From the NCBI GenBank assembly GCA_963804995.1, contig CAWDSK010000001.1, forward strand, positions 96,001 through 160,000: 64,000 nt of DNA, written 5' to 3'. Source of the stretch: an uncultured Acidobacteriota bacterium (GTDB lineage: Bacteria > Acidobacteriota > Terriglobia > UBA7540). Positions within the stretch are counted from its first letter, which is position 1. The number at the start of each line of letters is the position of its first letter. The translations under genes were made by a program, and so were the position numbers. This document shows positions 26,628 to 45,315 of this stretch, piece by piece. Below the pieces are notes generated by a model, which made no database searches, was not told where the DNA came from, and was given only the letters and a program-made list of their open reading frames with translations.

Positions 26628-27016
26628 CACCTCCCGGTTAACCTCGCCGATCTTTTGTTGAATTCCGGAGGTAATGCCTTGCCAGCCGGCTGCGGCGTTG
26701 CCTTGTTTCTTTTGAATCATTCGGCTCACCTGCTAGCCCTCTTTCGCCAGACGATAACAGGCAATCTTCAATTCACTATAACGCAATTGTTTCCTAAACT
26801 GTGGCTCCGCCGACGTGAAAGCATTTTCTCCCTTATCGCGCCGCTGTCCAAGCAATCTCAATTCAAATTTGCTGGGCGAAAAGCTGAAGCAGACTCCTTG
26901 CCATCCGTCGGGCAGCAGATTCCAAAGTCTCTGTTACCACGATCAAATCCCTTCTGCGGCGGCTCGTTCGAGAGTACCTCCACTACTACAACTACGCTTC
27001 ATACTGCCCCACCTCG

Positions 27017-29092
27017 CTATGTAGTTGAAAAACCTAACTTCCTTTGTTCAGACGTTGATATTGCGGGTCCCCGATTGCTGCCACGGACACGCGCGACGAA
27101 CTTTGCTGCGGCTTCTGTCTCCAGTGCACGCTGGCTAAAAACCCAGGGCCCATCGGCAAGGGGATGATCGGCTTCAATCTCGCCTCGTTCCACCGCCAGG
27201 CGGAGCGTCCGGGAACTCACGCCTAAGATGCAGGCCGCTTCCGTCAGGTTCATCCATTCTTCCGACTCGCCCCTGTCGATCGAGTGACCAGGAATCGCGT
27301 GATGACTGCGTAGTGAGGTCACCCGTTCCCGCGTCCAGCGATTACCTCGCCCAGTCAGTAGACCGCTCCGATTTAGCGCGCCGGCCAGCTGATCATCCGA
27401 ACAGATCCGCGCCAATACTCTTACCGCCTCGACGGTCTCTTTCGAGGTGTGACTGCTATTCTGTCCACGCCGCCGCCGGGGTAAACGCAGGTCGGTGTGC
27501 ACGCCCCCCTTCCAGTGAATCATCAGAATGATTTCACCTGCCTGCGCATCCACATCGACGACGATCTCATGGATCAGCGTTCGTACAATGCGTTTTTTCA
27601 GGCGAATATCGGCTCCCGGGTCATTCCACACGGCTTCAAGGTCGGCCGCCAAGTTCTCGAATTCTTCCCGCGTGGGTGCAGCTGCCTGACCCTGGTCCTG
27701 GACGTGCTGTTCGATTCGTAGTTCGATTTCGTGCACTCGCTGCAGGGCTTGGTCCCAGCGACGCTCCAATTCTTCTGTCACCAAGCGGTTTTCCGGGTCC
27801 GCGGCATCGTACTGTTTCTGGGCACGCTGCGCGGCATAGCGTGCTGCCTCCAGATCTCGTCCCAGGGCCTCCAAGACCTCGTCGCGCTGACGCGCTTGTT
27901 CTTCGCTGGCCAGCACTGCCGCTTCTATCGCTGCCGGTTGCACGACCCGCACCACTTCCTTTGCCATGATTTCGTCAACCAGCCTTCCGCCAAAGGCGAT
28001 GCAACGCGCTTCGCCATTGTCCAGCCAGCCTCGACGGCACCCGTAGCGGAGCACGTCATGCTCGTTCCCCGTATACCAGACGGTCAGCTTACGACCACAG
28101 CGCCGGCAACGCAACAGACCGGCCAACAAAGCCGGACCACTTCGGACGGCGCCCGCTTGACCCCATCCGCGAACATTCTCCGCCATCGCCTGTTGAATCC
28201 GCTCAAACTCTTGCCAACTCACGTAACCTTCATGAGCGTTCGGAATCAACGCCAGCCACTGCTCCCGCGGTTTGCGCCGAGAACCTCGGCGGGGCTCGCC
28301 GTTTTCATAATGCAATGACAGTTCGGTCTTTCCGTACGCATAGGCACCGCCGTAGATCGGGTTGGCGAGCAAGCGGTGGATCGTGCCATAAGAAGGACGC
28401 TTCCAGCCTGTTTCACCTTGGGGGGTGTGCACCGGAAGCTGCAAGCCGTGTTCCAGGAACTACAACAAGGTCTGACGAACGCTCCCCAGCTCGAGAAATT
28501 TGTGAAACACCAGCAGGAGGGCTTGCTGTACCCGACGGTCGGGATCTTTTTCCAAACCTGACTCTTCGGTCTTGAGATAACCGACCGGTGCGGCCACCAG
28601 CAACTCGCCCCGGCGCGCCTTTTCGCGTCGTGCTTCCACCGAGCGCTGGCGCAGCAGGTCCAGTTCATATTCGTTCAGGCTCCCCTTCAGCCCCAACAGT
28701 AATCGATCGTTACTGTGCCGGGGCGAATAAACCGTCTCCTGGTCGATCAACACCGTATCGACGACACGGCACACTTCCACCAACTGCTGCCAGTCTCGGC
28801 TGTTGCGAGCGAAGCGGGAGACCTCTCGAGCGGCCACCGCTCCGACCTTGCCCAAACACACCTCCGCCACCATGCGTTCGAAACCGGCGCGCGTTACCGT
28901 CCCGGCCGCGGACCGGCCCAGGTCTTCATCCACGACCTCGATCTCGCGCCAGCCTAGCTGTGCGAGGCGTTCCTGCATGGCATACTGCAACTTCTGGCTT
29001 TCCAGGTTATGGCTGACCTGATAAGCCGACGACTGACGAACATACAGGATCGCCTTGCGTTCCAGATGCTGCGTTTTGATCTTGTCACTCAT
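27017..29092 (-). pseudogene. Large serine recombinase with an in-frame amber stop
   Basis: YVRQS catalytic motif, DEDLGRSA, EVSRFARN, LLANPIYGG, CRRC/YGC zinc ribbon, coiled coil; TAG at 28460-28462 (RQTLL*FLEHG) between two in-frame halves. Confidence 0.9.
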
Positions 29093-29282
29093 TCCGCGCC
29101 TCCTTCTGATGGCCGGAGGCGAGGACCGGGCTTAAGTGCTCGCGCAGCAGTTGCGCCAGCAGCTTCAGGGTCTTCTGCTGGATTTCCTGAGGCAGTCTCT
29201 GCCAGGACGGACTCAGGTGGGGCGGATGAAACAATTTGAATTGATTGGCTGTCGGTCGGCTCTCTGACGTTCGCATCAGCAC
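29085..29282 (-). CDS. Small accessory ORF upstream of the recombinase
   Basis: 65 aa, helical (WQRLPQEIQQKTLKLLAQLLREH); overlaps the recombinase start, in the same position as 41143-41448 in element 2. Confidence 0.5.
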   Translation of the reverse strand: MLMRTSESRPTANQFKLFHPPHLSPSWQRLPQEIQQKTLKLLAQLLREHLSPVLASGHQKEARNE

Positions 29283-29618
29283 CTCCTGGGACTAGCAAGG
29301 AATGATGCTGAGCTTGTAGCACAACCTCTGGGCTGACCTGGGGGGCACCTCGAAGCAGGTCCTTCAAATCCAGCAATGCTTCGCAGGACACCGTGGGAAC
29401 TGCCATCTTACGCATCCGACAGCAGGTTGCAGAATCAAACATCCATTGCGGCACGTCCAAGCACCGAGCATCCGGGCTCTCCTCGATGCCGCACCGATAT
29501 ACCGCTTGCCTATTCTTGACGAGAGTTTCATAAGTCCAGACCGAACGACCGTACCACGGATGCCACGGGTAAAAGACTTCTCGAGATTCAGTACTATGGG
29601 TGTTGAGTTGTCGAGTTG
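29089..29618 (-). CDS. Startless body of att-split HP-motif (DUF5372-like) gene of element 1
   Basis: Open from the element edge: TRQLNTHSTESREVFYPWHPWYGR..LDVPQWMFD..; its ATG is at 27002 at the other end; its stop overlaps the recombinase ATG (ATGA). Confidence 0.75.
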
Positions 29619-29974
29619 TACCACGAAGATCGCGTCCATGACGCCCTGAACAAAGATACGCCTACCGGCCGTTTTCTCGAACGGAGGCGACCGATGCAGC
29701 AAGAGTTCTGGCTTACCTCGCGTCGGTGGCCTCCATCACCGCTATCAATGGCGGACAGCCGCCTGGAGTGCATACGCGATCAAGCCGTTGCCCATCTGTC
29801 GCCGTCTTCTTCCTGTGGAGTCAAAGCCAAGCCTGTCAGAACTCCATCAAAAACTGCCGAAACTCCGTCTGCGCGTGCGCCCTCGTCATGTGGACAAAGG
29901 AGGGCGCGAGGTGGCGGAGAGATCACCCCTTTTCTCAGGCGGCTTATTTTTGAGGACACACAAGTTGCCTGCTC

Positions 29975-30784
29975 TTACGGCGCGGAGAAAATGACCTTCT
30001 CATTGGGGTCCAGGAAGGCCAAGACGGGGCCGGACGGATTCGCCGCCAGCCCGGCTCGAATCTTCCCTTCGGCATCGTAGAAACCCAGGGCTGGCCCGTC
30101 AGCTGTCACGGCAAGCCCTGCTCGTCTCTTCTCGTTCGCATCGTAAAGAGCAAAGACAGGTCCCAGCTCCTCGAGTCCCAAGGCCAGCCGTGCTTTACCG
30201 TTTGCGTCACGGATGCGGAGGGTAGGTTCTTCCCCTTGCAGGCTGAGTCGGACTCGCCCCTCACCTTTCTCGTCGAACAAGGTGAGGTTCATGCCCGCTG
30301 CCGAAGCGCAGAGTTCCACGCGTTGTTGGGCCCGAACTCCTTGCACGATAAGTCCGCTCAAATCCTTCGTCGCGTACAGCCAGGATTGTGACCTTCCGTT
30401 CGCATCGAAGAGGATGACGGCAGGTCCATTCGAGCCCAGTCCGATAGCTAATCTTCTTTTTCCCTCCGTGTCAAAGAAACTCAAACTCGGCCCACTTGGG
30501 GTCATGCCGAGAACGGCGCCGGTTCTTCCCCTTTCGTCCTTGAGGACGAGTTTCTCCGCCTCCACAACCCGGGGCGATTTCCCAACCGCCATCATCAGAA
30601 AACCCCCAGCGAGCACCGAAAAGACGAGAATCACCTCCCTGGCGAGAATCCCTTTCGTCACCCAGGGCACGTTGGCCATCAGCAGGACAGCCAGGCAGAT
30701 CGCCGTCACAAGGCAGATTCTTTTCCCTGCCACATTCGCGAGCAGTGCTTTAATCGTCTCTTGACCGGCTTTCAGTTGTGTCAT
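29975..30784 (-). CDS. Membrane-anchored beta-repeat hypothetical protein
   Basis: Two N-terminal TM segments, then about eight ~22-aa repeats (GPxLxxxDxxGKxRxxL). Confidence 0.65.
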   Translation of the reverse strand: MTQLKAGQETIKALLANVAGKRICLVTAICLAVLLMANVPWVTKGILAREVILVFSVLAGGFLMMAVGKSPRVVEAEKLVLKDERGRTGAVLGMTPSGPSLSFFDTEGKRRLAIGLGSNGPAVILFDANGRSQSWLYATKDLSGLIVQGVRAQQRVELCASAAGMNLTLFDEKGEGRVRLSLQGEEPTLRIRDANGKARLALGLEELGPVFALYDANEKRRAGLAVTADGPALGFYDAEGKIRAGLAANPSGPVLAFLDPNEKVIFSAP

Positions 30785-30863
30785 ATGGGCTCCTACGCCT
30801 GGGGCTAGAAAGATGAGCTGACCGGGATTTTGTACCACCGCAAGTGAGAGAGTCTACATCATT

Positions 30864-31279
30864 TGAGTGGTCTGGGTTTTTTGTACCACTTTCAGAGTGA
30901 GTTTTCGGCTCCTTCGGGGCCTGTCAGGTTGCGGCTAGCCGCGACCTGACAGGCGAATTCGGTCGGCGTCCGCTCTCCGAGAGCCCGGTGAGGACGGCTC
31001 TCATTGTACTCCCTCCTCCAAGCCTCGATGATCGCTTTGGCCTCACTCAGCGTCATGAACCAATGGGCGTTCAGGCATTCCCGTCGAAAGGTGCCGTTGA
31101 AGGATTCCACGTGGGCATTGTCGGTGAGCTTGCCCGGCCTGGAAAAGTCGATCCGCACGCCGCTCTGATATGCCCACAAGTCCATCGCCTGACTGGAAAA
31201 TTCGCAGCCGTTGTCGCAGAACAGCAGCTTCGGCGCTCCCCGTTGCGCCTGGATCCGGTTCAACACCCTTACGACGGCC
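30864..31279 (-). mobile_element. IS3-family transposase 3' fragment with one terminal IR
   Basis: CDNG.EF, SRPGK.TDNAHVESFNG.FRRECLN, WRREYN..RPH; terminus TGAGTGGTCTGGG at 30864; truncated at 31279. Confidence 0.85.
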
Positions 31280-31795
31280 TGTCCGTGGCGGATTGCTAAT
31301 TTGCCTGGAATTCCGCGAATTTTCAGTTTCTTGCTACGATACGGATATGCGCGATCTCGTGATCCTTTTCATCCATCTCATCACGACCGTCGCCCGACTT
31401 GCAAGTCCCGGCGGCGTCCGTTCCGTAGTTGCCGAGTCCGTCCTCGTCAAACATCAACTGCTGATCCTCAATCGCTCGCGCCAGCGCGCTCCCCATCTCC
31501 GCCTATCGGATCGCACCGTCGCCGGTTGGTGCGCTCTGTTTATGCGGCCGTCCCGGCTGATCCGTTCGGCCATCGTTCTGAAACCTTCGACTCTCTTGAG
31601 CCTCCAGCAGGCCCTGAGGAACCGAAAGTATCGCCGGCTCTTCTCATCCGAGCGCAAGGGAAGGCCCGGCCCAAAAGGACCCAACAAAGAACTCATTGAA
31701 GCCGTTGTCCAAATGAAGCAGCGCAATCCCACCTGGGGCTGTCCGCGAATTGCTCAACAGATTGCCTGGGCCTTCGACATCCCCATCGACAAAGA

Positions 31796-33740
31796 GGTTG
31801 TGTCAAGAATTTTTGTCCCCTAAGGCGATAACCCATTGAATTGCTGGGAGAAACTGGATTTTCTGCTTTCTCCCCCCTCCGGGTGCGCTTGACTAGGACG
31901 TTGGCGTGAGGTGCGGTCGGGTTGCCGCGCTTAAGTTCCTGGACGTAACTGCGTCGTGGGGCTTGACGGCAAACAAAAAGGGCGGTGAAGTCTCTCTTTC
32001 CCAATCCACCTTGTAGGGAACCCGCCAGGTTCCCGAGAGACTCACCGCCATGGGCAAGATACCACGATTGGTGCTTTGGCTCTGTAGGAAATTTACCCGC
32101 CAGGATTTGCAGGAACTGGTCGAGCAACTGCAAGAGATTCTCGCCGGGCGCCAGCCCGAGCCTCAACCCCGCGACGACTTTCGCCAGCAGCATCCACACT
32201 ATCGCGACTTCTACGTTGACCCTCTGGCTCCCTTGACCCAGCCGCCTCCGGCACCTCGCACCTGGAACTGGCGGCAGTTGCTGGCTCAGTACCAGCGCCA
32301 GCACCGCCGACCGTTGGCTCCGATTCAGCGTTCTGGCGCCCACCCCCTGCCTCCCACTTGTCGTTGTGCCCACTGCGGCGCACCGCGCGACTTCCTCTAC
32401 CTCAACGATGGCCGTCACGCCCGCCAACTGCGCTGCAAAGTCTGTGGCCGGCTGTCGCAAATCGCTCGTCGTCATCGCCCGACGAAAACTCCTTACTGGT
32501 GCCCCTACTGCGGCAGCTCCCTCTTCCGCTGGAAGCAGCGTGCCGATTGCACCATCTACAAATGTCCTGGCGAGCGTTGTCCTCACTATCTCCAGAAGCA
32601 GCAAGCCCTGCACTGGAACGAGAAGTTGCTCCAGAAGCTGCGCCGCACGCAGTTCAAGCTGCGTTACCAGTATCGCGAATACCACTTTCAACCCGCCCAA
32701 CTGGCCCCCACCGCTCCCGATCCGCCCACCGTCGACCTCACCCGTCTGCATCGTTCTTCCGATGTCTTGGGCCTGGTGTTGGCCTTCCACATCTCTTTCG
32801 CCCTCTCCGCCCGCAAGACCGCCCAGGTCCTGCGGCAAGTCTTCGGCGTGCCTCTCAGCTACCAGTCCGTTCTCAACTATGCCCAGGCCGCCGCTTACTA
32901 CTGCCACGCCTTCAACCTCCGCTACAAAGCCCCGCTCAGCGCCACCGCCACCGGCGACGAGACTTATATTCGCGTCGCGGGGAAGCACCCATACACGTTC
33001 TTCTTTCTCGATCCCCAAGGGCATCGCATCACGTCCTATCACGTGGCGCCGGAGCGCGATGCCTTGGCCGCCACCGTGGCCCTGGGCGAGGCCGCGCGCA
33101 CCTTGCCCGAAGATCAGGCCCTGCGTTTCATCACCGACGGCAACCCCGCTTATCAGGCCGGCGTACACTTCCTCAACGCTCACCGCACCGCTTCCCAACC
33201 TCCCCATACCTTGCGGCAGGTCATCGGCCTGGAAAACCTCGACGCGGTCTCCAAGGAATTCCGCCCCTTCAAGCAACTCATCGAACGTCTCAATCGCACC
33301 TACAAATACCACGTCCGCCCGGCTTGCGGCTTTGCCACGCGCAACGGCGCCGTGGCCCTCACCACCCTGTTCGTCACCCACTACAACTTCCTTCGCCCCC
33401 ATCTGGCCCTGGGCTACCGCGTACCCATCCCCTTGCCGGAGTTGAGTTCCCTCACCACCTTGCAAGGCCAGTGGAACAAGATCCTCGCTCTCGCCCTGGC
33501 GGCCTGAGCCCGGTGGGAGTAAACTTCGCGGTGGCCGGGGCGGAGGATAGGGCTCCGCAGGGATGCGACCTGAGCGCCGACCCCGGGGCCGAGATCGGTC
33601 GGGAGCGAGCCCCACTCGCTCCCCCAGTCCAGACCCATCTTGGCACCAAAGCGATAAATCCTGGGGGTCTGGGGGCAAATCCCCCAGCTCTACCCACCTC
33701 CCGACCCTTCATTACCTTTCATAAAACTTTTGACAGAACC
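31796..33740 (+). mobile_element. 1945-bp IS with GG ends and 8-bp target duplication (IS6/IS1-like)
   Basis: IRs GGTTGTGTCAAGAATTTT / GGTTCTGTCAAAAGTTTT; GACAAAGA duplicated at 31788-31795 and 33741-33748. Confidence 0.92.
32050..33507 (+). CDS. DDE transposase with N-terminal zinc ribbons
   Basis: CAHC, CKVC, CPYC, CPGERC; GDETY, ITDGNPAY, IERLNRTYK, YNFLRPH. Confidence 0.9.
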   Translation: MGKIPRLVLWLCRKFTRQDLQELVEQLQEILAGRQPEPQPRDDFRQQHPHYRDFYVDPLAPLTQPPPAPRTWNWRQLLAQYQRQHRRPLAPIQRSGAHPLPPTCRCAHCGAPRDFLYLNDGRHARQLRCKVCGRLSQIARRHRPTKTPYWCPYCGSSLFRWKQRADCTIYKCPGERCPHYLQKQQALHWNEKLLQKLRRTQFKLRYQYREYHFQPAQLAPTAPDPPTVDLTRLHRSSDVLGLVLAFHISFALSARKTAQVLRQVFGVPLSYQSVLNYAQAAAYYCHAFNLRYKAPLSATATGDETYIRVAGKHPYTFFFLDPQGHRITSYHVAPERDALAATVALGEAARTLPEDQALRFITDGNPAYQAGVHFLNAHRTASQPPHTLRQVIGLENLDAVSKEFRPFKQLIERLNRTYKYHVRPACGFATRNGAVALTTLFVTHYNFLRPHLALGYRVPIPLPELSSLTTLQGQWNKILALALAA

Positions 33741-34556
33741 GACAAAGACGTGGTTCGAAGGATTCTCGCCCGTCACTATCGACCGGGACAGGACTCTGGT
33801 GGTCCATCTCCGACAACGATCCGCTTTATCGTTTTCATCAATGGCAAGCCAACCTGCGAATCCTGGATGTGGCCGAAATCAAGACCGTGCCCTACGTTCC
33901 TTTGTCCCATCCCTTTGTGGAGCGGTTGGTCGGCACCCTCCGCCGAGAGTGTTTGGATCGTACGCTGTTCTGGACAACCGCCGATCTCAAGAGCAAGCTG
34001 CTCGATTTCAAAAGCTATTTTAACCACCATCGCACGCATAGCGCACGGGCGGGGCGACCGCCAGAGGACGCACCGCCTCGGCCGGTCGCCAACCTCCAAT
34101 CTTATCGATGGGAATCTCACTGCCGGGGACTGTATCAAACCCCGATAGCTGCCTGATTCCCAAGAAACCTAAAACACCGGCCTCGTGGCATTGATGGCGT
34201 CACGTTCGACGCATTGCGATGCCGAAGTGTAGAAGCAACTGTCTAGGGTCTCGGTGAAGATGGATGAAACGGCGGTCAGATCCGCGTGCCCGCGGCATAA
34301 CAAGATTGCGAAATGCAGAAAACCTCAGGAAACTAGAAATTCGCCAGGTCCAAGTGACCACCAGAGCAAGATGAGGAGTTGCACCGCACTGGGGTTGTTT
34401 TCGAGTAGGTTTGAGGCGAGTAACATGCATCGTTCGAACGACACGGATATGAATCTGAAAGGAGTTGATGAGTGGCGGAAAGTCGCCTACCAAATTCGTC
34501 TTTCTGACTCGAAGCAGCTATAGATTGGCAACTGCCCTTGTGGGATTCGGAACGCT

Positions 34557-35213
34557 CTAGAACTGCACAATCTTATTGCGCAGGGCGTAGCGAATCACGC
34601 CGGTCAAGGAATGGGTGCCGAGCTTGTGCATGATGTTGCTTCGGTGGGTTTCTACCGTGTGAACACTGAGCCCCAAGGTTGCCGCGATCTCCTTGTTACT
34701 CTTCTCCTCGGCCAGAAGCTGGACAACTTCTCGCTCGCGAGGGGTCAATAGGTCACGAGTGAGGTTCGTTCTGCCGGTTGTCTTGCCCCCTTTCAGGAAG
34801 CTCTCCACTACAACCGTTGCTACCTCGGATGAGAAAAAACCTTTGTGCCGGCCAAGCGCCGCCACGCCCTCCGCCAAGTTTCGTCCTGCGTCGGACTTCA
34901 GGATGTAGGCACGAGCGCCTGATTCGACCACCCTGCGTATTAACTGTTCGGACTCATGAAGCGTGAGGATAAGCACCTCGGTTCTAGGGAGGGCTTTCAG
35001 GATTTGTCGCGTCGCTTCCAAGCCGTTCAATTCCGGCATGCTGATATCCATCACCACCACGTCAGGCTTCGTCTGTTTAGCCCGTTCAACCGCCTCCCGG
35101 CCATTGGCCGCCTCCGCGCAGATTTCCCATTCGGGACAGACTTCCAAAAGGGCTCGCATTCCCTTCCGCACGACCTCGTGATCATCTGCCACCAGAATAC
35201 GAAGCGTTTTCAC
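34557..35213 (-). CDS. NarL/FixJ-family response regulator
   Basis: ADDH, MDISMP, LK receiver motifs; LTPREREV..TVETHR LuxR HTH. Confidence 0.95.
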   Translation of the reverse strand: MKTLRILVADDHEVVRKGMRALLEVCPEWEICAEAANGREAVERAKQTKPDVVVMDISMPELNGLEATRQILKALPRTEVLILTLHESEQLIRRVVESGARAYILKSDAGRNLAEGVAALGRHKGFFSSEVATVVVESFLKGGKTTGRTNLTRDLLTPREREVVQLLAEEKSNKEIAATLGLSVHTVETHRSNIMHKLGTHSLTGVIRYALRNKIVQF

Positions 35214-37027
35214 GGAACAACCTCGGGATTCGGGATCACCACTCGGACGGTTGTGCCTCGGCCGCTTGAATCGATTTCCAGCCGACCCCCGAGTTGTCGG
35301 GCGCGCTCGCTCATGCCCATAATGCCCACTCCAAGCTTTCCGCTTTTCTGATTGCCCGAGTGGAGGGCCTTTGCGGGCATCCCCCGGCCTTTGTCCGCTA
35401 TTTCTAACTTCACCTCCGTCGCGCGCCGGGAAAGCCGTATCCTGGCTGTAGGACTTTTGGAGTGGCGGTGGACGTTTGTAAGGCCTTCCTGCACTACGCG
35501 AAAAAGGGTTGTCTCTGCCTCCTGGGGCAGTCGGCCAAATTGGGGAGACACTTTGAGGTCGACCTTGATTCCGCTTCGCTCGGCAAACCCCTTAACGTAC
35601 CAAGCCAAGGCTGAAGCCAAGCCATCTTCATCAAGCAGTGGCGGGTGTAACAAATAGGAGAGGGTGCGCATCTCCTTTAGGGACCGCTCTGCCACCTCAA
35701 GACTTCCAGACAGAGCTTGGCGTACTTTCGGATCAAGCTTACGAGCCGACTTGCGCGCCAAGGTGAGGTTCGCCACCAAACCGACGAGGTTCTGGCCTAT
35801 GGCGTCGTGGAGTTCCCGGGCAATGCGCCGCCGCTCCTCATCCTGCAACTGCAGCAAACGTGTAGAAAGCCCGCGGAGGGCCTTTTCAGCTTGCTTGCGT
35901 TCGGTGAGGTCCCGCATGACGGCCAACACACAAGGTGATCCCGTCCCATCACCAATAGGGACCGCATAAGTCTCCGCCCACCTTCGCGCCCCTTTGAGCC
36001 CGACAATCTCGAATTCCAAATTGGCATTATTGCCGCTGCAAACTCCCTGCAAGAGAGCTTTGAACGCCGCCCTGTGCTCGGGCACAATCAAGGGAAGCAC
36101 TGACTTTCCACTAACTTCGGCAAAGCTCTCAGCCTCGATCAGGGCCAGGCCCGCCGGGTTTATTTGAAGAAAGTCGCCGTTGCACGCGACCTTCGCGACA
36201 CATTCCGGCTCGGTTTCAACGATGGCACGCAGGTGACTTTCACTTTGCCGGAGCGCCTCCTCCGCCTCCTTACGCCGGGTAATATCGATGATGGTCCCTA
36301 AGATGAACGGTTGGCTGCCCGCCTCCCCTTCAATCAGATTCTCGTTAGCTAGAACCCAAACCGGGCTCCCATCTTTTCGCTTAAGGCGCAATTCTAGATT
36401 CGAGAGGGTCTTTTCCGCTCTTATGCGGGTGGTGATTGCCTCCGGCTCGCGGGGATCAAAGTAGAATTCCTGCACTGGATGAGCTAAGACCTCTTCACGA
36501 GAGGCAAACCCGAAGACCTTGACGAAAGCTTCATTACAGTCCGTGATGCGGCGGTCTAGGGCAGTGCGGTATACGCCCGCAAGGTTTCTTTCAAAAAGCA
36601 GGCGATACTGCTGCTCGCTTCTCTCGAGAGTTGCCTTCGCGTGCATCCGCTCAACTGCAAAGAGGACGGCGCGGCAAATCCACTCGCCACTCACCTTTCC
36701 TATGACCAGGTAATCCTGCGCCCCTTCCCGGACTGCTTGGAGGCCAAGCTTTTCATCGGTAAGATCCGTTAGCACTACGATGGGAGTGCCGGGGAATTGA
36801 TTGTGTAACTCCACAAAAGTGCTAATGCCCTGGCTGTCTGGAAGCCCGAGATCCAATAACACCGCGTCGATTCCCCCCTTCGCCAGCCGCTCGATCGCCG
36901 TCAGTAAGCTTGGGGCATCCTCCAGGTCAGCCAAGGCGGGCTTCGCTTCCTTCAGCATTTCCCGGATTAGGCTGATATTTTCCGGATTATCCTCCACCAG
37001 CAAGACCTTAATCGGCTCGGATGTCAT
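35210..37027 (-). CDS. REC-PAS-PAS HisKA_3 sensor histidine kinase
   Basis: LVED/LLDLGLPD receiver; two PAS/PAC domains; ERRRIARELHD; QEGLTNV, DKGRG, GxG boxes. Confidence 0.93.
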   Translation of the reverse strand: MTSEPIKVLLVEDNPENISLIREMLKEAKPALADLEDAPSLLTAIERLAKGGIDAVLLDLGLPDSQGISTFVELHNQFPGTPIVVLTDLTDEKLGLQAVREGAQDYLVIGKVSGEWICRAVLFAVERMHAKATLERSEQQYRLLFERNLAGVYRTALDRRITDCNEAFVKVFGFASREEVLAHPVQEFYFDPREPEAITTRIRAEKTLSNLELRLKRKDGSPVWVLANENLIEGEAGSQPFILGTIIDITRRKEAEEALRQSESHLRAIVETEPECVAKVACNGDFLQINPAGLALIEAESFAEVSGKSVLPLIVPEHRAAFKALLQGVCSGNNANLEFEIVGLKGARRWAETYAVPIGDGTGSPCVLAVMRDLTERKQAEKALRGLSTRLLQLQDEERRRIARELHDAIGQNLVGLVANLTLARKSARKLDPKVRQALSGSLEVAERSLKEMRTLSYLLHPPLLDEDGLASALAWYVKGFAERSGIKVDLKVSPQFGRLPQEAETTLFRVVQEGLTNVHRHSKSPTARIRLSRRATEVKLEIADKGRGMPAKALHSGNQKSGKLGVGIMGMSERARQLGGRLEIDSSGRGTTVRVVIPNPEVVP

Positions 37028-37677
37028 GGCGTTTTTCCTCACGGGAGTTTCACGATCGTCAACCAAAAATCTTCAACCGACTTCACAACCTGGACAAGAT
37101 GATGATTAACCCTCGCCACTCGTCCAAGAGAGGACACTCAGACTCTGTTAGATGCCGAGTGTGAAGGATTCTCAAACGCCGGGCAGCGGAGTTGATGTTG
37201 ACGCACTTCTTAACGATAATCAAGCTTCATACGTACCAATCCACTGCCATATATGTCTCTACTGTAGATTATGTAGAGACACCTAGAGGTTCGGGCGCTC
37301 AACGTACTGTCGAATACTCAATGTGCAGAATTGTGCCTGTCCCTGCTATCAAGATAAGCTGCTAGGCGGCGCCAGGAGGGTGCTAAGTCGGGGAAGGTCG
37401 TTACCGAGAACGAAGCATTCGGGGGATGACGAGTGAGCAGCCCAATCGCACCCTGAAACTCCCTTGGAGTTAATCCGACCCGCGAGGTGATCCAGCGTGG
37501 TCGCCAAAATCCCATTCCTTCTGACACCACGGGCGCGCCCTTAGCAGGCAGAGGAGGGTTGTTATGGCTAAGAGAAGCCAGCCTGCCGATTGGGCCCTCG
37601 CGGGAATCACCGGCGAGAATGCGGTTCTGGAATACGCCGCGAACCGCGATATCTTCAGCAAGCAGACGGAGGGTGTT

Positions 37678-38403
37678 ATGACGCCACAGAAGAGCCCGCC
37701 TGAGGTTGACATGGCCAATGGCAAAGGCAAGCCTCCACTTGCTACAGCAAGCGAGAAAATTCAGACCGTCGATTGGGCAGCATTTCTCGCAGGAATCTCG
37801 CGCGGAAAAACCGTTCTAGAATACGGCGCGGGCCGCACGATCTTCGTGCAGGGAGACCCTGCGGATTCCGTGTTCTATCTCCACCATGGCGAGGTGAAAC
37901 TCGCGGTGACATCCCAACAAGGCAAGGAAGCGATCGTCACCGTTCTGGGCGACAACGAGTTCTTCGGCGAGGGATGCCTGGCAGGCCAGCTGCTGCGTAT
38001 CTCAACGGCTATCGCGGTGAGCGATTGCACTCTTTACAGAATCGAGAAGGCGTTGATGGTGCGTTTGCTCCACGAGCAGCACGGAATCTCGGAATTGTTC
38101 ATCACGCACCTCCTTTCACGCAACATTCGATTTGAAGGGGATCTGGTCGACCAGCTTTTCAACTCCAGCGAAAAGCGCCTGGCCCGGATTCTCTTATTGC
38201 TGGCGCATTTTGGCAAGGAAAGCAGAACCGAAACGGTCCATCCCGGAATCAATCAGGAACACCTGGCCCAAATGGTCGGCACCACCCGGTCACGGGTCAG
38301 TTATTTCATGAACAAGTTCCGCACACTGGGCTTTGTCAATTACGCGGGCAGCGGCGAGTTGACGGTTAACAGTGGCCTCTTGAGCGTGGTCCTGAGTGAC
38401 TAG
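37678..38403 (+). CDS. Crp/Fnr-family transcriptional regulator
   Basis: FFGEGCL cNMP-binding fold; QEHLAQMVGTTRSRVS HTH; RBS GGAGGG. Confidence 0.92.
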   Translation: MTPQKSPPEVDMANGKGKPPLATASEKIQTVDWAAFLAGISRGKTVLEYGAGRTIFVQGDPADSVFYLHHGEVKLAVTSQQGKEAIVTVLGDNEFFGEGCLAGQLLRISTAIAVSDCTLYRIEKALMVRLLHEQHGISELFITHLLSRNIRFEGDLVDQLFNSSEKRLARILLLLAHFGKESRTETVHPGINQEHLAQMVGTTRSRVSYFMNKFRTLGFVNYAGSGELTVNSGLLSVVLSD

Positions 38404-38759
38404 CCCCGTATAGCCGAAATAGGTATAACCGGGAGGCTTGGCCTGCCATGCTGAGCGGGGTAGCGCTGAGGAAAGCATTCGGTTTGATGGGGTGCTCTCC
38501 AAGGGATAGCCCTCGCTCAGGCTCAGGAAAAAAGCCACCGCATTGTGCCACTTTCCTACGTAACGAAGCACCCGTATCCATGTCAAACCCTCGGTAATTC
38601 CCACCGGCCGCCCAAAACGCAGTTCCCCCTCACTAACTGGCATGAGTAATTCTGACCAGACGTCTGTGCAATATTGAACTGACCCCGCGAGTTGCCCGCG
38701 AGTAGTGTGTTGTGATGGCTGGGTAGGCGCAGAAAGATGGCTGTCAAGGATGAACCCTA

Positions 38760-39584
38760 ATGCGCAAATCGAAAGAGCCTAAAACACACTTCGAGCAGAT
38801 TCCGGTGGAGATAGTCAAAAAGATTGCGGAAGAAGACATTCCGGACGACGAAGAGAACGGACCCAACGTGACCGTCAAACCTCAGGTTGTCAGGGCCAAC
38901 GGCAAAGGCAAGCCCAGGCTTGCTGCAGCAAACGAGAAGACTCAGCCCGTCGATTGGACAGCATTCCTTGCCAGAATCTCGCGCGGGAAAACCGTTCTAA
39001 AATACGGCGCGAACCGCACGATCTTCGCGCAGGGAGACCCTGCGGATTCCGTGTTCTATCTCCACCAAGGCAAGGTGAAACTCTCGGTGACATCCCAACA
39101 AGGCAAGGAAGCGATCGTCACTATTCTGGGCCCCGACGAGTTCTTCGGTGAGGGATGCCTTGCCGGCCAGCTTTTGCGCATCTCAACGGCTATGGCGGTG
39201 ACGGATTGCAGTCTTTACAGGATCGAGAAGTCACTGATGGTGCGTATGCTCCACGAGCAGCACGGAATCTCGGAATTGTTCATCACGCACCTGCTTACCC
39301 GCAACATTCGATTTGAAGAGGATCTGGTCGACCAGCTTTTCAGCTCCAGCGAAAAGCGCCTGGCCCGGATTCTCTTATTGCTTGCGCATTTTGGCAAGGA
39401 AAGCAGAACCGAAACTCTCCATCCCGGAATCAATCAGGAACACCTGGCCCAAATGGTCGGTACCACCCGGTCACGGGTCAGTCATTACATGAACAAGTTC
39501 CGGACGCTGGGCTTTCTCGATTACACGGGCAACGGCGCGTTGACGGTTAACAATGGCCTCTTGAGCGTACTCCTGAGCGACTAA
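38760..39584 (+). CDS. Crp/Fnr-family regulator, tandem paralog
   Basis: Near-identical to the preceding gene from ANGKGKP onward; different acidic N-terminus. Confidence 0.92.
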   Translation: MRKSKEPKTHFEQIPVEIVKKIAEEDIPDDEENGPNVTVKPQVVRANGKGKPRLAAANEKTQPVDWTAFLARISRGKTVLKYGANRTIFAQGDPADSVFYLHQGKVKLSVTSQQGKEAIVTILGPDEFFGEGCLAGQLLRISTAMAVTDCSLYRIEKSLMVRMLHEQHGISELFITHLLTRNIRFEEDLVDQLFSSSEKRLARILLLLAHFGKESRTETLHPGINQEHLAQMVGTTRSRVSHYMNKFRTLGFLDYTGNGALTVNNGLLSVLLSD

Positions 39585-40165
39585 CATACGATAACCGGCA
39601 TAGGTATTACCGGCCCGCTTAGCCTCCCATCCTGAGGGGGGCATGGCGGAGCGAAGTATCTCGCTTGGAGGGCTGGTCGCGGTAGGGATACCGGTTGCCC
39701 GGTACCCTGTCCTTCGCCAATACACGATAATGCTGCATTCGCTGCAAAAGTGGCCGCCCAAAGACCGCAGTCTCCGCTTGTCGCTCTGTGCCTTGGTCTC
39801 TGGTCCGAGAGGTCATCGGGCTGGTCGCGCCTTTGCGCCGACAAGCACCCGCCTGGCGCGAGACAGGTTGCAGTTTTCGAGGTAAGGGAACGGCAGGCCG
39901 ATGCTGCCCTCGGTCAGGCAGCGCGCCGTTCGTAGCGATGGTGCAGGCCACCGACCTGCGGGATCTCCACCATCTCTCCGGCCTCCGGTCCCTGCACGAC
40001 CCGAGGGGTCGGAGCGTCCTTGGCTAAGGAGAGGTGAGTTCTTGAACCCAGATAGTAATCGAAATAACTTTTCAGGATTCGTCGCAGATGCTTCTCTCCC
40101 AGCACGATCACGTGATCCACGTACTCACGTCGGATGGAGCCCACCAGCCTTTCCGCAAACGGATT

Positions 40166-40458
40166 GGATCAGGTCGTCAACTACACACCATAGAGACTAT
40201 TCAAAACGACGTTTCCGAGTAACTCACCCTTACCATCCACTGTTCCAACGTGAATTCGAATGGGTGGACTACCGCCAGAACTGGGGGGAGGACCGAGTGT
40301 ATTTCTACGACGAAGGAGGCCAGTTGACCTCGCTACCGGCGCGGTGGACGAGTGTCGTGGGGGAGGACCCATTCGTGGTCATAGGGGGAGGCCGCTCGTA
40401 TTTTCGCGTTGAGGACCTGATTGAATTGGTGCGTTTGGTGGAGGGTTTACGGTCCTGA
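40166..40458 (+). CDS. Startless body of att-split DUF5372-like gene of element 2
   Basis: IRSSTTHH..FRVTHPYHPLF..NWGEDRV..SLPARWT..DPF..GRSYFRVEDL; no ATG before the motif inside the element; its ATG is at 43528. Confidence 0.8.
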
Positions 40459-40608
40459 AGCCCCGGAAGGTCTGTAAAGGGAATTACGCCGTTTGTGTTA
40501 AAGGGATTATGTCGGAGCTTGAGCCGAAGTCCAGAGTTTTCGGTGGGTGTGTGAGTGCAATATCCGCTTATTGTGCAACACAAATTCGGGTCGGAGGATA
40601 GAAAAGGC

Positions 40609-40637
40609 TTGACAGGGAGCAAGAGAATGTATATAAT
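40609..40637 (+). promoter_or_regulatory. Consensus sigma70 promoter
   Basis: TTGACA (40609-14), 17-nt spacer, TATAAT (40632-37); 41 nt upstream of the HTH gene. Confidence 0.9.
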
Positions 40638-40678
40638 TAACATTACACTCGTTTGCCGGATTTGCTCCGGAGGAGCCC

Positions 40679-41146
40679 ATGTCCCCTTCCTCACGCCACG
40701 ATGCCAAGCGCCATATCCTGCGCTCCCAAGGTACCTTGAATCCCCGCCCGCAGGAGGTGGCCCACGCCCTGTTCCAGGACAGCGACTTCTTCAATCCCCG
40801 GGACTTGCTGCAGGTCAAGTACGAGATGCTGCGCCAAGTGAGGGTCGAAAACCAAGCGGTGAGCCAAGCGGCGGAGGCTTTTGGTTTCTCCAGACCCTCC
40901 TTCTACCTCGCCCAGGCGGGCTTCGTAGCCAGGGGACTCGCAGGATTGATTCCCCAGAAACGGGGACCTCGGCACGCCCACAAGCTCACGGCCGAGGTAA
41001 TGGAGTTCGTCCGGCAGGCCCGAGCTGCCGAACCCTCCTTGCGGAGCGAGGAACTGGCGGCCCGGGTGAAGAAAGCCTTCCGTCTACGGGTCCATCCTCG
41101 CAGCTTGGAGCGCCGGCTTCGGCAGCAGCAAAAAAAACGACGTTGA
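40679..41146 (+). CDS. Helix-turn-helix protein of LSR element 2
   Basis: FFNPRDLLQVKYEMLR; VSQAAEAFGFSRPSFY HTH; KRGPR..HKL; VHPRSLER; RBS GGAGGAG. Confidence 0.88.
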   Translation: MSPSSRHDAKRHILRSQGTLNPRPQEVAHALFQDSDFFNPRDLLQVKYEMLRQVRVENQAVSQAAEAFGFSRPSFYLAQAGFVARGLAGLIPQKRGPRHAHKLTAEVMEFVRQARAAEPSLRSEELAARVKKAFRLRVHPRSLERRLRQQQKKRR

Positions 41147-41448
41147 GCGACCCTCCCGTTGCTCCCCTGATGGCCCAGGAGGGGATCGTAAACCAATATG
41201 AGGAACTCCGGCGACAAGTGCGGGGTGAGTTAGGCGGCAGGCGCGGAGCCTTGGGCCTGGCGCTGTTTATTCGCCAGGGGATGAAAGGCTGGATGGAAGC
41301 CTGGTCCCACTGCCTGCCGGGTGGGATTCCGATGAAACCCCAGAATCCGTCCGGCCCTGAGGAGAGGGTTCCTCTCGATCTGCACACGGAAGTGGTTACG
41401 ATTCTGGCGAGCATGGTACTTCACAGTCGGCCGGAGGTGAGAGGATGA
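41143..41448 (+). CDS. Small accessory ORF (possible -1 frameshift extension of the HTH protein)
   Basis: YEELRRQ..GLALFIRQGMKGW..ILASMVL; TTGA overlap upstream and ATGA overlap with the recombinase. Confidence 0.7.
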   Translation: MSDPPVAPLMAQEGIVNQYEELRRQVRGELGGRRGALGLALFIRQGMKGWMEAWSHCLPGGIPMKPQNPSGPEERVPLDLHTEVVTILASMVLHSRPEVRG

Positions 41449-43538
41449 GAACCGAAATGCCGCAGAAGGTTCAAGCCCACCATTTGAAACGCGACGCCTA
41501 CCTGTATATCCGGCAGTCCACGCTTCGGCAGGTCTTTGAGAATACCGAGAGCACCCAGCGCCAGTACGCGTTACGCCAACAGGCCGTGGCCCTGGGCTGG
41601 CCTTTGGAACGGATCATCGTGATCGACAACGATCAAGGCCAGTCGGGAGCTTCGGCGGTAGACCGAGAGGGATTTCAAAGGTTGGTGAGTGAAGTGGGGA
41701 TGGGGCGAGCAGGGATCGTTCTGGGTCTCGAGGTGTCGCGCCTGGCGCGCAACTCCACGGACTGGCATCGACTGCTGGAGATCTGCGCGCTCACCGACAC
41801 GCTCATTTTGGATGAAGATGGCATCTACGACCCGGCGCACTTTAATGACCGCCTGCTGTTGGGGCTGAAAGGCACGATGAGCGAGGCGGAACTGCACGTG
41901 CTGCGAGCCCGGTTGCGAGGCGGAATCCTCAGCAAAGCTCGGCGCGGTGAGTTGGAGATCCCACCTCCGGTCGGCTTGGTCTATAACGGCTCGGGGCAAC
42001 TCGTTCTCGATCCGGACCAGCAGGTGCAACAGGGCCTTCGACTCTTGTTTGAAACCTTCCGTCGTACGGGATCCGCCCTGGCCACGGTGAAGGCCTTTCG
42101 CCAGCAGGGGCTGCTGTTTCCCCGCCGCCTGCGGGCGGGGCCCCACCAAGGAGAGTTGGTATGGGTGGAACTTGTTCACAGCCATGTCCTGCGCGTTTTG
42201 CACAATCCTCGGTATGCCGGGGCCTACGTCTTTGGCCGGAGTCAGACGCGCAAGAAGCTGGAGGGTGGCGTGACGGTGAAGTGGTTGCCTCGCGAGGAGT
42301 GGGACACTTGCCTTCCTGGGGCCCATGCGGGTTACCTCTCCTGGGAAGAATATGAGAGCAATCAGCGGCGGTTACGGGAATCCGCGCAAGCTTGGGGTCC
42401 CGACCGTCGTCAAAGCCCTCCGCGGGAAGGTCCAGCGCTTCTGCAGGGATTAGTGATCTGTGGCCGCTGTGGGAATCGGATGACCGTGCGTTATCATGTT
42501 CACCGGTCACGCCTGGCCCCCCATTATGTGTGTCAGCGGTACGGTATCGAACACGCTCAAACCATCTGCCAGACGGTTCCTGGAGCGGGTATCGACCAGG
42601 CCATCGGGGAACTGCTGATCGAAGTGGTCACTCCGTTAGCCCTGGAGGTGGCGCTGAGCGTGCAGCAAGAACTTCAGTCTCGTTGGGAAGAAGCGGATCG
42701 GTTGCGCCAAACCCAAGTCGAGCGCGCCCGGTATGAGGCGGAGCTGGCCGAGCGGCGCTACTTGCGTTGCGATCCCGACAACCGGCTCGTGGCGGATTCG
42801 CTCGAGGCCGACTGGAACCACAAGCTGCGTGCTCTGGGAGAGGCTCAGCAAGAGTATCAACGTCAACGTCAGGTCGACCGTGGGTTGTGTCGGGAAGAGG
42901 AACGCGCTCAGATTTTTGCCCTGGCCACAGACTTCCCTCGGCTGTGGCGCGATGCGAAAACGCCACATCGAGAACGGAAGCGTATGGTCCGCCTTCTATT
43001 GGAAGACGTCACGTTGACCCGCAACCATGAGATCACGCTTCAGATCCGCTTCAAGGGGGGAGCTACAAAGACCCTGCATTTGCCCATCCCCCTCAATGCC
43101 TGGAAACAGCGCACCACCAAGCCGGAGGTGGTGGCGGAGATCGACCGGCTCCTGGATCAACGTACCGATCGGCAGATCGCTAGCCTGCTGAATGAACGCG
43201 GCTGGCTCTCGGGCGAAGGCAGGCCCTTCAGCCCTCACATCGTCGCGCGCATACGGCGTAACTATGCCTTGAAGAGCGGTTACACTCGCCTACGCGGAGC
43301 CGGCCTGTTGACCCTGCAAGAGATGGCTAAGCTGCTCGGCATCTCCACCGGGTGGGTGAAAGTCTGGCGGGACCATGGTCTGTTAAGAGCTCAAGCCTAC
43401 AACGAGAAAAACGAGTGTTTATATGAACACCCCGGCGATGATCCGCCGCGCAAGATGCAAGGGACGAAGCTCGCTGCCAGGCAGCGATTCTTCGAGGACC
43501 CCTCGAATCATACCAATGAGGTGCAGTATGAAGCATAA
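41445..43538 (+). CDS. Large serine recombinase, apparently intact
   Basis: YIRQS, DNDQGQSG, EVSRLARN, LHNPRYAG, CGRC/YVC zinc ribbon, coiled coil, C-terminal HTH; 697 aa. Confidence 0.95.
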   Translation: MRTEMPQKVQAHHLKRDAYLYIRQSTLRQVFENTESTQRQYALRQQAVALGWPLERIIVIDNDQGQSGASAVDREGFQRLVSEVGMGRAGIVLGLEVSRLARNSTDWHRLLEICALTDTLILDEDGIYDPAHFNDRLLLGLKGTMSEAELHVLRARLRGGILSKARRGELEIPPPVGLVYNGSGQLVLDPDQQVQQGLRLLFETFRRTGSALATVKAFRQQGLLFPRRLRAGPHQGELVWVELVHSHVLRVLHNPRYAGAYVFGRSQTRKKLEGGVTVKWLPREEWDTCLPGAHAGYLSWEEYESNQRRLRESAQAWGPDRRQSPPREGPALLQGLVICGRCGNRMTVRYHVHRSRLAPHYVCQRYGIEHAQTICQTVPGAGIDQAIGELLIEVVTPLALEVALSVQQELQSRWEEADRLRQTQVERARYEAELAERRYLRCDPDNRLVADSLEADWNHKLRALGEAQQEYQRQRQVDRGLCREEERAQIFALATDFPRLWRDAKTPHRERKRMVRLLLEDVTLTRNHEITLQIRFKGGATKTLHLPIPLNAWKQRTTKPEVVAEIDRLLDQRTDRQIASLLNERGWLSGEGRPFSPHIVARIRRNYALKSGYTRLRGAGLLTLQEMAKLLGISTGWVKVWRDHGLLRAQAYNEKNECLYEHPGDDPPRKMQGTKLAARQRFFEDPSNHTNEVQYEA

Positions 43539-44391
43539 GCCTTTTGCCAAGGGCTCTGCGGCGCGGTCAGGACTTCGGTGATGTCCATGTCGCTGAGAAG
43601 ATTGCGGAAACCTTCCCCGTAGATCTGGTCCCGGTCTCGGATCAAATAGCGTGGCGCCGTGTCTTCGGGGAACGCTTCCAGGATTTGCTGAGTGGCCCAA
43701 GCCGCCGTCGGATGCTCGGTCACGTTGAAATGCACGACACGCCGGCGATGATGAGCCAGCACGACAAAAACGAATAACACTCGAAAACTGACCGTGGGCA
43801 CCGTGAAGAAGTCAACCGAGACCAAACCCTGAACATGGTTATTCAAGAAGGCCTTCCAAGTCTGGGAAGGTGGCTTCCGGCACTTGGGCATCAATCGGGA
43901 AACCGTGCGCTCGGAAACCTCCATTCCCAGCTTGAGCAGTTCCCCGTGAATGCGAGGGGCGCCCCAATACGGGTTCGCGGTCGCCATCTGCTTGACCAGG
44001 GCTCGGACTTCTGAACTGAGTTGTGGTCGACCTGAACTTCCCCGCTGCGAGATCCTCGCCCAATAGATTCGGAAGGCCTTTTGCTGCCAGCCGACAACAG
44101 TATCACCGTTCACCACATGCAAGGCCTGTCGCCAAGGGGCCCAGACTCGGGAAAGCACCACCCAAAACAATCGATCTTTCCTCTTCAGTCTCGGCACGCC
44201 CTTCCTTCTCTTTAGCACTCCCAGCTGTTGTCGCAAAGCCAGATTTTCCAAGGCCAAGTCACGGCGTTCTCTAAGAGCTGCAATTATGAAAATGACCAGC
44301 CATCGTAATGTCTCGATCATGGGTTGGAGTGTGGAGGTAACGACCTGAATAATCAACGGATTTCGAGCCGATGGAGTTTTGGCGATGGACA

Positions 44392-45095
44392 GCTGGCTCG
44401 AACGAGCGACCTGGGGAAAGTATCTCCTGATCCCGCCTGACCAGGGGCCGGACGCCCTGGGCGACAGCAATCTCTTGGCCCTCGCGAGCCGTATCACTAG
44501 CCGGTACTACTTCGGCCTCGGCACCGCCGCAGCGCACTATGGGCTGACAACTCAGCACCGCAACGTGATCTTTGTTGTAACGCCGCAGCGCCCGCGCGCG
44601 CGCACCGTCGGAGAATCGCGGGTCCGGATCGTCAATCAGGCGGAGAGCAAGTTCTTCGGATTTGAGCCGGTCGACGTGCTCGGCTACAAGGTGATGATCT
44701 CGGACCGCGAAAAGACTGCCATCGACTGTATTGATCACCCACCACTCGCCGGAGGCGTGGGGGAGGCCGCCACCATTCTTGCCACCGCGACTCGCCGCTT
44801 CGACTGGAACAAAGCTGCTGATTACCTCGAACGGATAGGCACCGGCGCGCTGGTGCGCCGATTCGGCTGGCTGGCCGACCACGTCAAGGCGGATATTCCG
44901 CCCTCCACACGCGAGCGCCTGCTCAGGTTGGCGGCGCGAAGCCGCAAAACGTGGCTCGGCGCCGCTCCCGAACACGCTATGCCGGGCGCAATCGGTTATG
45001 ACGAGACATGGCGCCTGTTCGTGAATGTTTCGCGCGAAGAGCTGCAAGGCAGCGTCGGCCTCGGACAGCGGAAAACGGTCAGGGGAGGTGCGTAG
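44392..45095 (+). pseudogene. AbiEi-like antitoxin/regulator, 5'-truncated
   Basis: WLER..GKYL, TAAAHYGLT, KFFG, ISDREKTAIDC, RRFGWL; begins directly at the IS end. Confidence 0.75.
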
Positions 45096-45097
45096 CC

Positions 45098-45241
45098 ATG
45101 CTTACGCAGCCCCAGGTTCAGCGCTATGCCATCGAATCCGGCCTTCGCAACATCATGATCGCGGAAAAGGAAGTGGTGCTGACGTCTCTGCTGCAGGTTC
45201 TCGCCGAGCGTGGCCTTCCCTTAGTCGGCCATAGCCAGTAG
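45098..45241 (+). pseudogene. Probable AbiEii-like toxin N-terminal stub
   Basis: RBS GGAGG then MLTQPQVQRYA..AEKEVVLT.LL; breaks off after ~40 aa. Confidence 0.55.
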
Positions 45242-45315
45242 CGCGCCGCAGTGCACTGCCTCTCTATGATGGGCGGCCCTTGGCCGAAAGCGCTGCAGCC
45301 CATCGCCATGCACAA

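Follow-up and report, generated by a model that had tools for sequence, protein, structure and literature searches.

Why do two different mobile elements in one stretch of DNA interrupt genes of the same transposase family, both in the antisense direction and at different conserved motifs? The stretch (hereafter the window) comprises 64,000 nucleotides of contig CAWDSK010000001.1 (positions 96,001 to 160,000 of the forward strand) from an uncultured Acidobacteriota bacterium (assembly GCA_963804995.1; genome G000). Elements 1 and 2 (E1 and E2) within it each encode a large serine recombinase (LSR) and lie in insertion sequence (IS) genes of the rve type. They are probably two branches of minimal, multi-copy LSR elements that target conserved transposase codons and move through a circle. 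Directly observed were the element ends with their 2-bp cores, the multiple copies, the target codons, the bias in orientation and the split accessory gene. The finding is real and general and makes mechanistic sense, as a variant of LSR mobile elements that has specialised on conserved codons of transposases.

E2 is 3378 bp long with one copy of its core, which is TT on the plus strand and AA in the sense of the host gene (Table 1). As proposed in an earlier reading made from the sequence alone (the sequence-only reading), removal of these 3378 bp in silico regains a 342-aa open reading frame (ORF) from the ATG at 44320, between inverted repeats that match at 14/17 positions, but no target duplication was found at this host IS in the window, and its two outer flanks derive from different loci. 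The residues D170, D231, N260 and E264 are placed as in an intact paralogue, by which Glu264 is the third DDE residue; the Asn260 codon supplies the core. The split PWQ|NPFAER thereby falls four codons upstream of the catalytic Glu, the position that had been guessed. The boundaries are also seen in public data: in contigs of 3/4 public runs, uninterrupted homologues pass straight from 40163 to 43542, two letters being shared at the joint, and a closely related element (96%-like) extends over 40164-43555 in contigs from two public runs, confirming the ends. The recombinase gene is antisense to the host transposase, its product matches PF00239, PF07508 and PF13408 above cut-off, and the recombinase alignment (A1) contains an invariant Y-x-R-Q-S, the catalytic serine motif. 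Both elements have a 2-bp crossover core without further target duplication, with AA at both junctions of the four E2 copies in this genome and TA for E1.

E1 measures 2632 bp with one TA core, and its relatives with both ends are 2596-2639 bp long. It consists of an accessory ORF and the recombinase only, without the helix-turn-helix (HTH) gene and small ORF of E2; the accessory ORF has no Pfam or NCBIfam match. The recombinase gene, antisense to the host remnant, is interrupted by a single TAG, and all three domains named above are found across its pieces. A frameshift in this gene was ruled out, as the break is an in-frame stop with no gaps across it against three intact relatives. The host is a remnant of about 13 codons on the 5′ side (read by eye) and a frameshifted 3′ piece, split at EYLHY|YHEDR within a Tyr codon. 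In the C-terminal half, counted from the Asn, the equivalent Tyr is codon 38, which places it 37 codons past the E2 site and agrees with the distance first estimated, as do the recombinase and host strands with the claim that both elements oppose their target gene.

The host IS has a single ORF with HTH and rve DDE domains between TGT...ACA-type inverted repeats, an organisation that is a feature of the IS481 family. However, the IS481 model NCBIfam NF033577 (cut-off 224) gives 77.1 and 69.1 bits for two intact 343-aa paralogues, so that the "IS481-like" of the sequence-only reading is a loose label, and the IS3 model (cut-off 160) gives 92 and 60 bits. Being under both cut-offs, the host counts as an unclassified HTH-rve IS. 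No target duplication was seen at three empty paralogues either, and a 3-bp match was seen at one host; the flanks of these copies may be rearranged. By a motif test in its own genome, the intact E2 target site is still present in nine stretches of the host family.

Target codons in copies and relatives

Four copies of E2, more than 99.8% identical, are present in G000, and all four are antisense at the same Q|N position of four different host genes. Since IS-like sequence makes up 0.54% of this genome (own mask), their placement at one codon exceeds chance. The E1-type far ends in G000 (E1 and two partial relatives joined to a host 3′ half) are likewise antisense at the Tyr codon in 3/3 cases. 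One E2 copy (G000:C6:764624-767995) carries a one-base frameshift early in its recombinase, either real or an assembly error.

The enrichment of transposase targets and the orientation bias that the sequence-only reading had anticipated were both found among relatives. In a survey of the phylum for the E2 family, 20 of 401 genomes had a match. From a collection of species genomes we took the best 80 of 596 confirmed stretches, 64 of which extend at least 150 nt beyond the LSR stop; Pfam scans of their flanks covered 150 of 152 antisense segments and 141 sense segments. An antisense IS domain was found in 38/64 loci (rve in 28, IS66 TnpB in 4, ISL3 in 3, a DDE_Tnp_1-type, IS4-like domain in 2 and IS91 in 1) and an antisense HTH only in two more, whereas the sense flanks gave one IS domain and a few non-IS matches. 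The exception (L081) is an E2-family element with a TA core that lies sense in an IS21-type C-terminal domain (PF22483). The stop-side core is TT in 81/88 E2-family rows, copies counted. A class-wide search with the end pattern yielded 7 more sites, of which 5 look IS-like by eye, and distant homologues at about 40% identity (L009, L010, L013 and L024) adjoin, again by eye, antisense IstB-like Walker A sequence.

Two further genomes carry many copies. In G279, eight copies with an LSR 68% identical to that of E2 are antisense in 8/8 cases, with the AA core in an Asn or Lys codon four before a Glu; by motif, their targets are four IS3-type and four IS1202/ISNCY-type genes, so one element can enter two IS families. 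On the plasmids of Sinorhizobium fredii NGR234, the LSR is 54.6% identical to that of E2 over 98% of its length, and the nine matches on pNGR234a/b are antisense (9/9) at a Lys codon of IS21- or IS1202-type transposases, also by motif. Targeting of a single family is too narrow a reading: the target is a conserved motif common to IS3-, IS21-, IS1202/ISNCY-, ISL3-type and other genes. A transposase profile built from 8 hosts of the own genome, itself too narrow, found targets in only 3/27 loci, and targets were read from junctions and Pfam instead. The proposal that IS481-like genes serve as landing sites therefore stands for transposase genes and for a strong antisense bias, but not for one family. 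Off-target insertions also occur: L123 sits within a gene of the alpha-amylase family, the opposite strand of which resembles the target motif, and L095 and L076 are probable further cases. Such mimicry of the motif by the non-coding strand suggests recognition at the DNA level rather than at the protein level.

For E1, the analysis used the best 80 of 467 metagenome stretches, 69 of which contain at least one junction. At the far ends, TA was found in 51/55 and Y/H-x-x-x-R-x-H in the antisense core frame in 49/55, against one occurrence in the other five frames. At the stop ends, TA was found in 36/39, and in the 37 that were scanned an rve or rve_3 domain was antisense in 27 and sense in none. 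The hosts include the family found in the window and, by motif, IS3- and IS481-type genes. One relative (L214), which has TG in place of TA at its two junctions and a His codon as its site, is a natural core variant. All 11 E1 relatives included in the recombinase tree group with E1 in a single clade (support 1.0), and the E1 and E2 recombinases are identical at 246/670 aligned residues (37%). No relative was found among viral contigs, by protein or by end pattern.

Could the pattern be one of descent, with a few ancient insertions that multiplied by hitch-hiking within the host IS or when copies recombined? Among the E2 copies in G000, host halves have been shuffled, and some of the G279 and NGR234 copies share host arms, as such a history would predict. 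However, near-identical elements lie in unrelated transposase families in G279 and NGR234, the far-side host 30-mers all differ in the 55 E1 relatives, and the families targeted are spread across the recombinase tree, so that descent is a very improbable explanation. Hitch-hiking as the main cause was rejected, given identical elements in non-homologous contexts and four E2 copies in four hosts.

An accessory gene divided by the attachment site

A DUF5372-like ORF lies upstream of the LSR gene in 63/65 loci, and the integrated elements separate its body from its native start: a ribosome-binding site (RBS) and a start codon 14 nt before the core make up the conserved sequence beside the LSR stop. 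When the circle junction is computed, this start opens the DUF5372 frame in 25/25 E2-type elements (for 101-124 aa) and, in 22/24 E1-type elements, a related frame (for 170-181 aa); the other frames are open in 0 and 2, respectively. In integrated elements, there was no sign that host antisense sequence keeps the accessory frame open more than other frames. In E2, a perfect sigma-70 match and no plus-strand terminator-like site were found, which suggests that a single transcript would reach DUF5372 in the circle and run antisense into the host when integrated.

A structural model points to the recombinase as the partner of this protein. In the ESMFold2 complex, DUF5372 residues 69-96 are predicted to lie on LSR residues 338-343, 394-413 and 482-541, with a score of 0.73 against 0.00 for the best of 3 controls; the runs agree in at least 87% of contacts and the partner pLDDT is at least 71. 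The mark used for this score was reached by 116/157 solved pairs and 2/215 mismatched pairs. According to the accessible part of one report, the SPbeta factor binds the zinc-ribbon domain and the proximal coiled coil of its integrase through a C-terminal helix and the preceding loop (10.1101/2025.01.03.631226), and unrelated directionality factors converge on one integrase site, as far as a second describes (10.1101/2024.06.11.598349). As the predicted DUF5372 interface resembles the SPbeta site (10.1101/2025.01.03.631226, in part), DUF5372 is likely a directionality factor, although the pass of the model may partly reflect that likeness. Whether it would favour excision of sister copies or re-integration is about even. 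The DUF5372 model itself (pLDDT 80) has its best match, at Z 5.4 over residues 8-64, to SH3/KOW-like barrels, too weak to name a fold; Foldseek gave no match at E 0.001 and the Atlas gave DUF5372 clusters only.

We propose the following cycle. The element would be excised as a circle and re-integrate site-specifically into an attB that is a degenerate DNA motif spelled by the codons of conserved transposase residues: in the E2 branch, the Asn or Lys codon four before the catalytic Glu, with an AA core, and in the E1 branch, the Tyr codon of Y-x-x-x-R-x-H, with a TA core. The recombinase would read DNA, not protein. As the target residues are conserved across rve-fold transposases, such sites would offer harmless, self-renewing landing places in several IS families. 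The element's own promoter would drive the HTH gene, the small ORF (ORF3) and the LSR gene and, in the circle only, read on into DUF5372, whose product would signal that the element is circular and, seated at the zinc-ribbon/coiled-coil base of the LSR, act as a directionality factor. Once the element is integrated, that transcript would instead continue, in antisense, through the inactivated 5′ half of the host.

The G000 genome gives a single hint that insertion may be reversible. An uninterrupted hybrid transposase (L247, G000:C1:67468-68547; C1:67717) has its breakpoint at the position of the E2 AA core; over 433 nt its 3′ half is the same as the 3′ half of an E2-occupied host, and its 5′ part is that of another host subfamily. 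This one case suggests the product of an excision between non-cognate copies, with recombination in the conserved motif as an alternative. At the 5′ host half of one E2 copy (G000:C6:307776-308555), about 600 nt match an empty twin and the last 60 nt or so match another occupied host, a pattern of flank exchange near the junction. No circle junction was among the 14 joints listed from contigs of 4 public runs, a sample that cannot show absence; the open accessory frame across the computed junction supports a circle indirectly. We would go further only as speculation: branches may partition the transposase motifs (catalytic-Glu helix, Y-x-x-x-R-x-H, IS66 TnpB, IstB Walker A and IS91), a circle-only protein might bind the recombinase and set target and a single orientation, also on a palindromic core, and non-cognate excision might exchange transposase halves at the catalytic helix and so create hybrid transposases.

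Specificity, polarity and competing explanations

The DNA motif of E1, in a matrix of 36 left and 51 right arms, holds about 25 bits plus the core. On G000, 13 of its top 20 sites lie on IS coding strands, with the site of the window in the top 6, and leave-one-out scores are positive at 22/23 sites and negative at 23/23 when flipped. The strong motif is on one arm of attB only. Pooled E2 matrices, from which own sites were excluded, hold 16-22 bits. An orientation set solely by the core dinucleotide is consistent with E2, where it follows simply from the asymmetric AA core, and does not fit the E1 relatives, so that an explanation is needed only for the E1 branch.

Several observations weigh against the targeting of transposase codons through a circle as set out above. 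The four own E2 sites rank 15th to 295th among 827,210 AA sites, and 2-20% of equally scoring E2-motif sites lie in IS sequence against a background of 0.54%; the pooled motif is strong IS enrichment, not exclusivity, and pooling blurs enzyme-specific preferences. By Pfam, 24/64 E2-family loci have no antisense IS domain, several of which are IS by eye and some off-target, and L069, L071 and L087 resemble, by eye, IS91 read in sense. The strict polarity of E1 relatives on a palindromic TA core (0/39 and 0/47 sense junctions, counted on genomic survivors only) is not predicted by plain LSR chemistry. Finally, a host-derived in-frame ATG or GTG precedes the accessory body at 19/34 E1-type and 6/20 E2-type integrated sites, and one is also present in this window, so that "circle-only" applies to the native start alone.

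In the available parts of the work on A118 integrase, symmetric cores gave 35.5-47.5% inversions (PMC3556126), and arm asymmetry did not set orientation (PMC3556126; PMC3783163, as far as accessible). In the E1 branch, either sense insertions are lost or there is another source of polarity. The first would follow from loose targeting with purifying selection, in which insertions arise at many motif-like sites, in either orientation if the chemistry permits, and only those antisense in dispensable IS genes survive. The hundreds of equally scoring non-IS sites left by the pooled E2 motif and the known off-target insertions would fit this, and sense E1 insertions, which would put the element under the host promoter, could be selected out. 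However, dispensable and intergenic DNA far exceeds the 0.54% of IS, yet 4/4, 8/8 and 9/9 copies in three genomes lie at one IS codon; the E1 motif by itself already selects IS sites; and a sense insertion has no clear cost in a gene that is dead either way. We consider selection of this kind an improbable explanation.

The second would be met if an accessory protein (DUF5372 or the HTH and ORF3 products) or a feature of the host IS added target information and polarity, in a two-component, asymmetric integration that would set these elements apart from the serine integrases studied. The strict polarity with a symmetric core, the one-armed E1 motif and the gap in E2 specificity speak for it, as does the fact that the sole accessory gene common to both branches is complete only in the circle, which is the integration substrate, and that its product is predicted on the DNA-binding zinc-ribbon domain. 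That predicted site is, on the other hand, the usual site of directionality factors, where the known ones, in the sources seen in part, promote excision; the E2 gap may be an artefact of few sites and of a pooled matrix that blurs clade-specific preferences; and a guide-like RNA family was not found, nor any Rfam family, in window positions 26000-45500. We regard a second component as possible and would advance it only tentatively. Recognition of the codon-spelled motif by the LSR is the reading that we consider probable for both branches.

Related elements and neighbouring features

The repeat on the NGR234 plasmids has the same DUF5372-HTH-small ORF-recombinase order as the 3378-bp E2, and it belongs to the same family, with all copies inside other ISs; E1, without the HTH gene and small ORF, is a separate branch. 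We take this four-gene repeat to be NGRIS-4 in NGRRS-1. Perret et al. reportedly noted in 1997 that all nine copies lie inside other ISs, and are said to have described the repeat as an IS, without a serine-recombinase mechanism, a catalytic-codon rule, a circle-completed gene or an E1-type branch. Homing into mobile elements is otherwise known from the group II intron RmInt1 in ISRm2011-2 and from IS4321/IS5075 in the inverted repeats of Tn21. Like E1 and E2, these exploit another element as a landing site that is safe and renewable, but with other chemistry or one fixed target, and we know of no homing element that reads conserved catalytic codons across IS families. The TnpX/TndX transposons combine an LSR with a circle intermediate and a signal gained at the junction; by Pfam, DUF4368 of the TndX-like multi-targeting clade is absent from the E1 and E2 recombinases. 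The literature searched, with thin coverage of subscription journals and preprint supplements, contained no description of LSR targeting of transposase codons or of DUF5372.

In its accessible parts, the study of Durrant et al. 2022 (PMC10083194) describes multi-targeting LSRs with many degenerate attB sites and a 2-bp core that is often TT, in a clade that mostly carries DUF4368. These resemble E1 and E2 in that one enzyme uses many degenerate sites with a 2-bp core. A Gene Ontology test for transposase targets, from which multi-targeting enzymes were excluded, was not significant there (6/1069 vs 2/908), and in the main text as available we found no mention of IS66, rve or insertion sequences, nor a report of transposase targeting (PMC10083194). 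The phage integrases Bxb1, phiC31, A118 and SPbeta, as far as the sources consulted describe them (PMC3783163, PMC3556126), share with E1 and E2 the catalytic, recombinase and zinc-ribbon domains, the 2-bp core, near-symmetric circle-junction arms and a small partner at the zinc-ribbon/coiled-coil base, which is predicted here. Unlike them, E1 and E2 have no phage, many targets and a partner gene split by the attachment site, and the E1 branch keeps a fixed orientation despite its palindromic core.

An observation of the 1997 type thus becomes a testable rule at codon resolution, with two sister branches that share one host gene through different motifs. In IS genes, specialised parasites would have a niche of their own, and they may keep transposition in check. 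By rule, a symmetric core permits insertion either way round; the E1 branch conflicts with this, which bears directly on the use of serine integrases for oriented insertion. If the role proposed for DUF5372 is true, excision would complete the gene of a directionality factor, a control logic that would be new, and this family would gain a function. Small recombinases with many targets, landing in IS genes that the cell can spare, might also serve as delivery tools for environmental bacteria.

Table 1 Features of E1, E2 and their host genes, in window positions
Feature	Position	Strand	Basis
5′ remnant of E1 host rve transposase, about 13 codons ending EYLHY	26946..26986	+	six-frame reading; extent by eye
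E1 crossover TA, recombinase-stop side, first two bases of Tyr codon	26987..26988	.	TA at 36/39 stop-side junctions of relatives
E1, accessory ORF and LSR	26989..29620	-	size as in relatives with both ends
Stranded RBS and ATG of E1 accessory gene, joined only across the circle junction	27000..27015	-	181-aa computed ORF
E1 LSR, one in-frame TAG (28460-28462)	27017..29092	-	PF00239, PF07508, PF13408
E1 accessory ORF body, distant DUF5372-like	29092..29619	-	hhalign probability 73%, E 3e-5
E1 crossover TA, far side	29619..29620	.	TA at 51/55 far junctions of relatives
3′ remnant of E1 host transposase, YHEDR..., frameshift before GGLHHRY	29621..29760	+	tblastn with intact paralogues, two frames
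Host IS terminal inverted repeat, 3′ end	39708..39724	+	14/17 match with other end
E2 host transposase, 3′ half with catalytic Glu	39914..40163	-	ORF reading, paralogue comparison
E2 crossover dinucleotide, far side	40164..40165	.	four genomic copies; public contig of 96%-like element ends at 40164
DUF5372 gene body, without native start when integrated; predicted recombinase binder	40165..40458	+	PF17342, E 2e-22
E2, four genes	40166..43543	+	4 copies, >99.8% identical, in this genome
Sigma-70 consensus promoter before HTH-ORF3-recombinase operon	40609..40637	+	12/12 match; consensus match only
155-aa HTH protein, probable autoregulator	40679..41146	+	HTH_32/29/28
Small ORF overlapping recombinase start, no family	41170..41448	+	same position in NGR234 and Burkholderia elements
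E2 LSR, 697 aa, intact; stop 3 bp from core	41445..43538	+	PF00239, PF07508, PF13408
Stranded RBS and ATG of DUF5372 within last recombinase codons	43518..43530	+	computed junction ORF, 25/25 E2-type elements
E2 crossover dinucleotide, recombinase-stop side	43542..43543	.	genomic copies, public contigs
E2 host transposase, 5′ half, 259 codons ending PWQ	43544..44320	-	HTH_32, HTH_21, rve
Host IS terminal inverted repeat, 5′ end	44376..44391	-	14/17 match with other end

Other features of the window touch the host family. A third copy (31347-34156, plus strand) is broken at 31788-33748 by a different element, which encodes a 485-aa IS6-like DDE protein (32050-33507) and whose two ends bear inverted repeats and an 8-bp direct repeat. 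An AbiEi antitoxin-like gene (44379-45095) loses about 48 N-terminal codons to the end of the host IS. Two empty hosts adjoin an N-terminal piece of paralogous AbiEi genes (G000:C1:53723-53878 and C6:779053-779208), and a further empty host lies just upstream of an intact AbiEi gene (C1:68701-69594); this suggests that the host IS favours an AbiEi-like gene as its site. Between E1 and E2, the minus strand holds a C-terminal fragment of an IS3-type transposase (30892-31266). Two tandem genes, Crp/Fnr-like by eye (37564-39584) and 88% identical over 300 nt, lie beside the host IS end, and sequence like this pair recurs at several other places in the genome.

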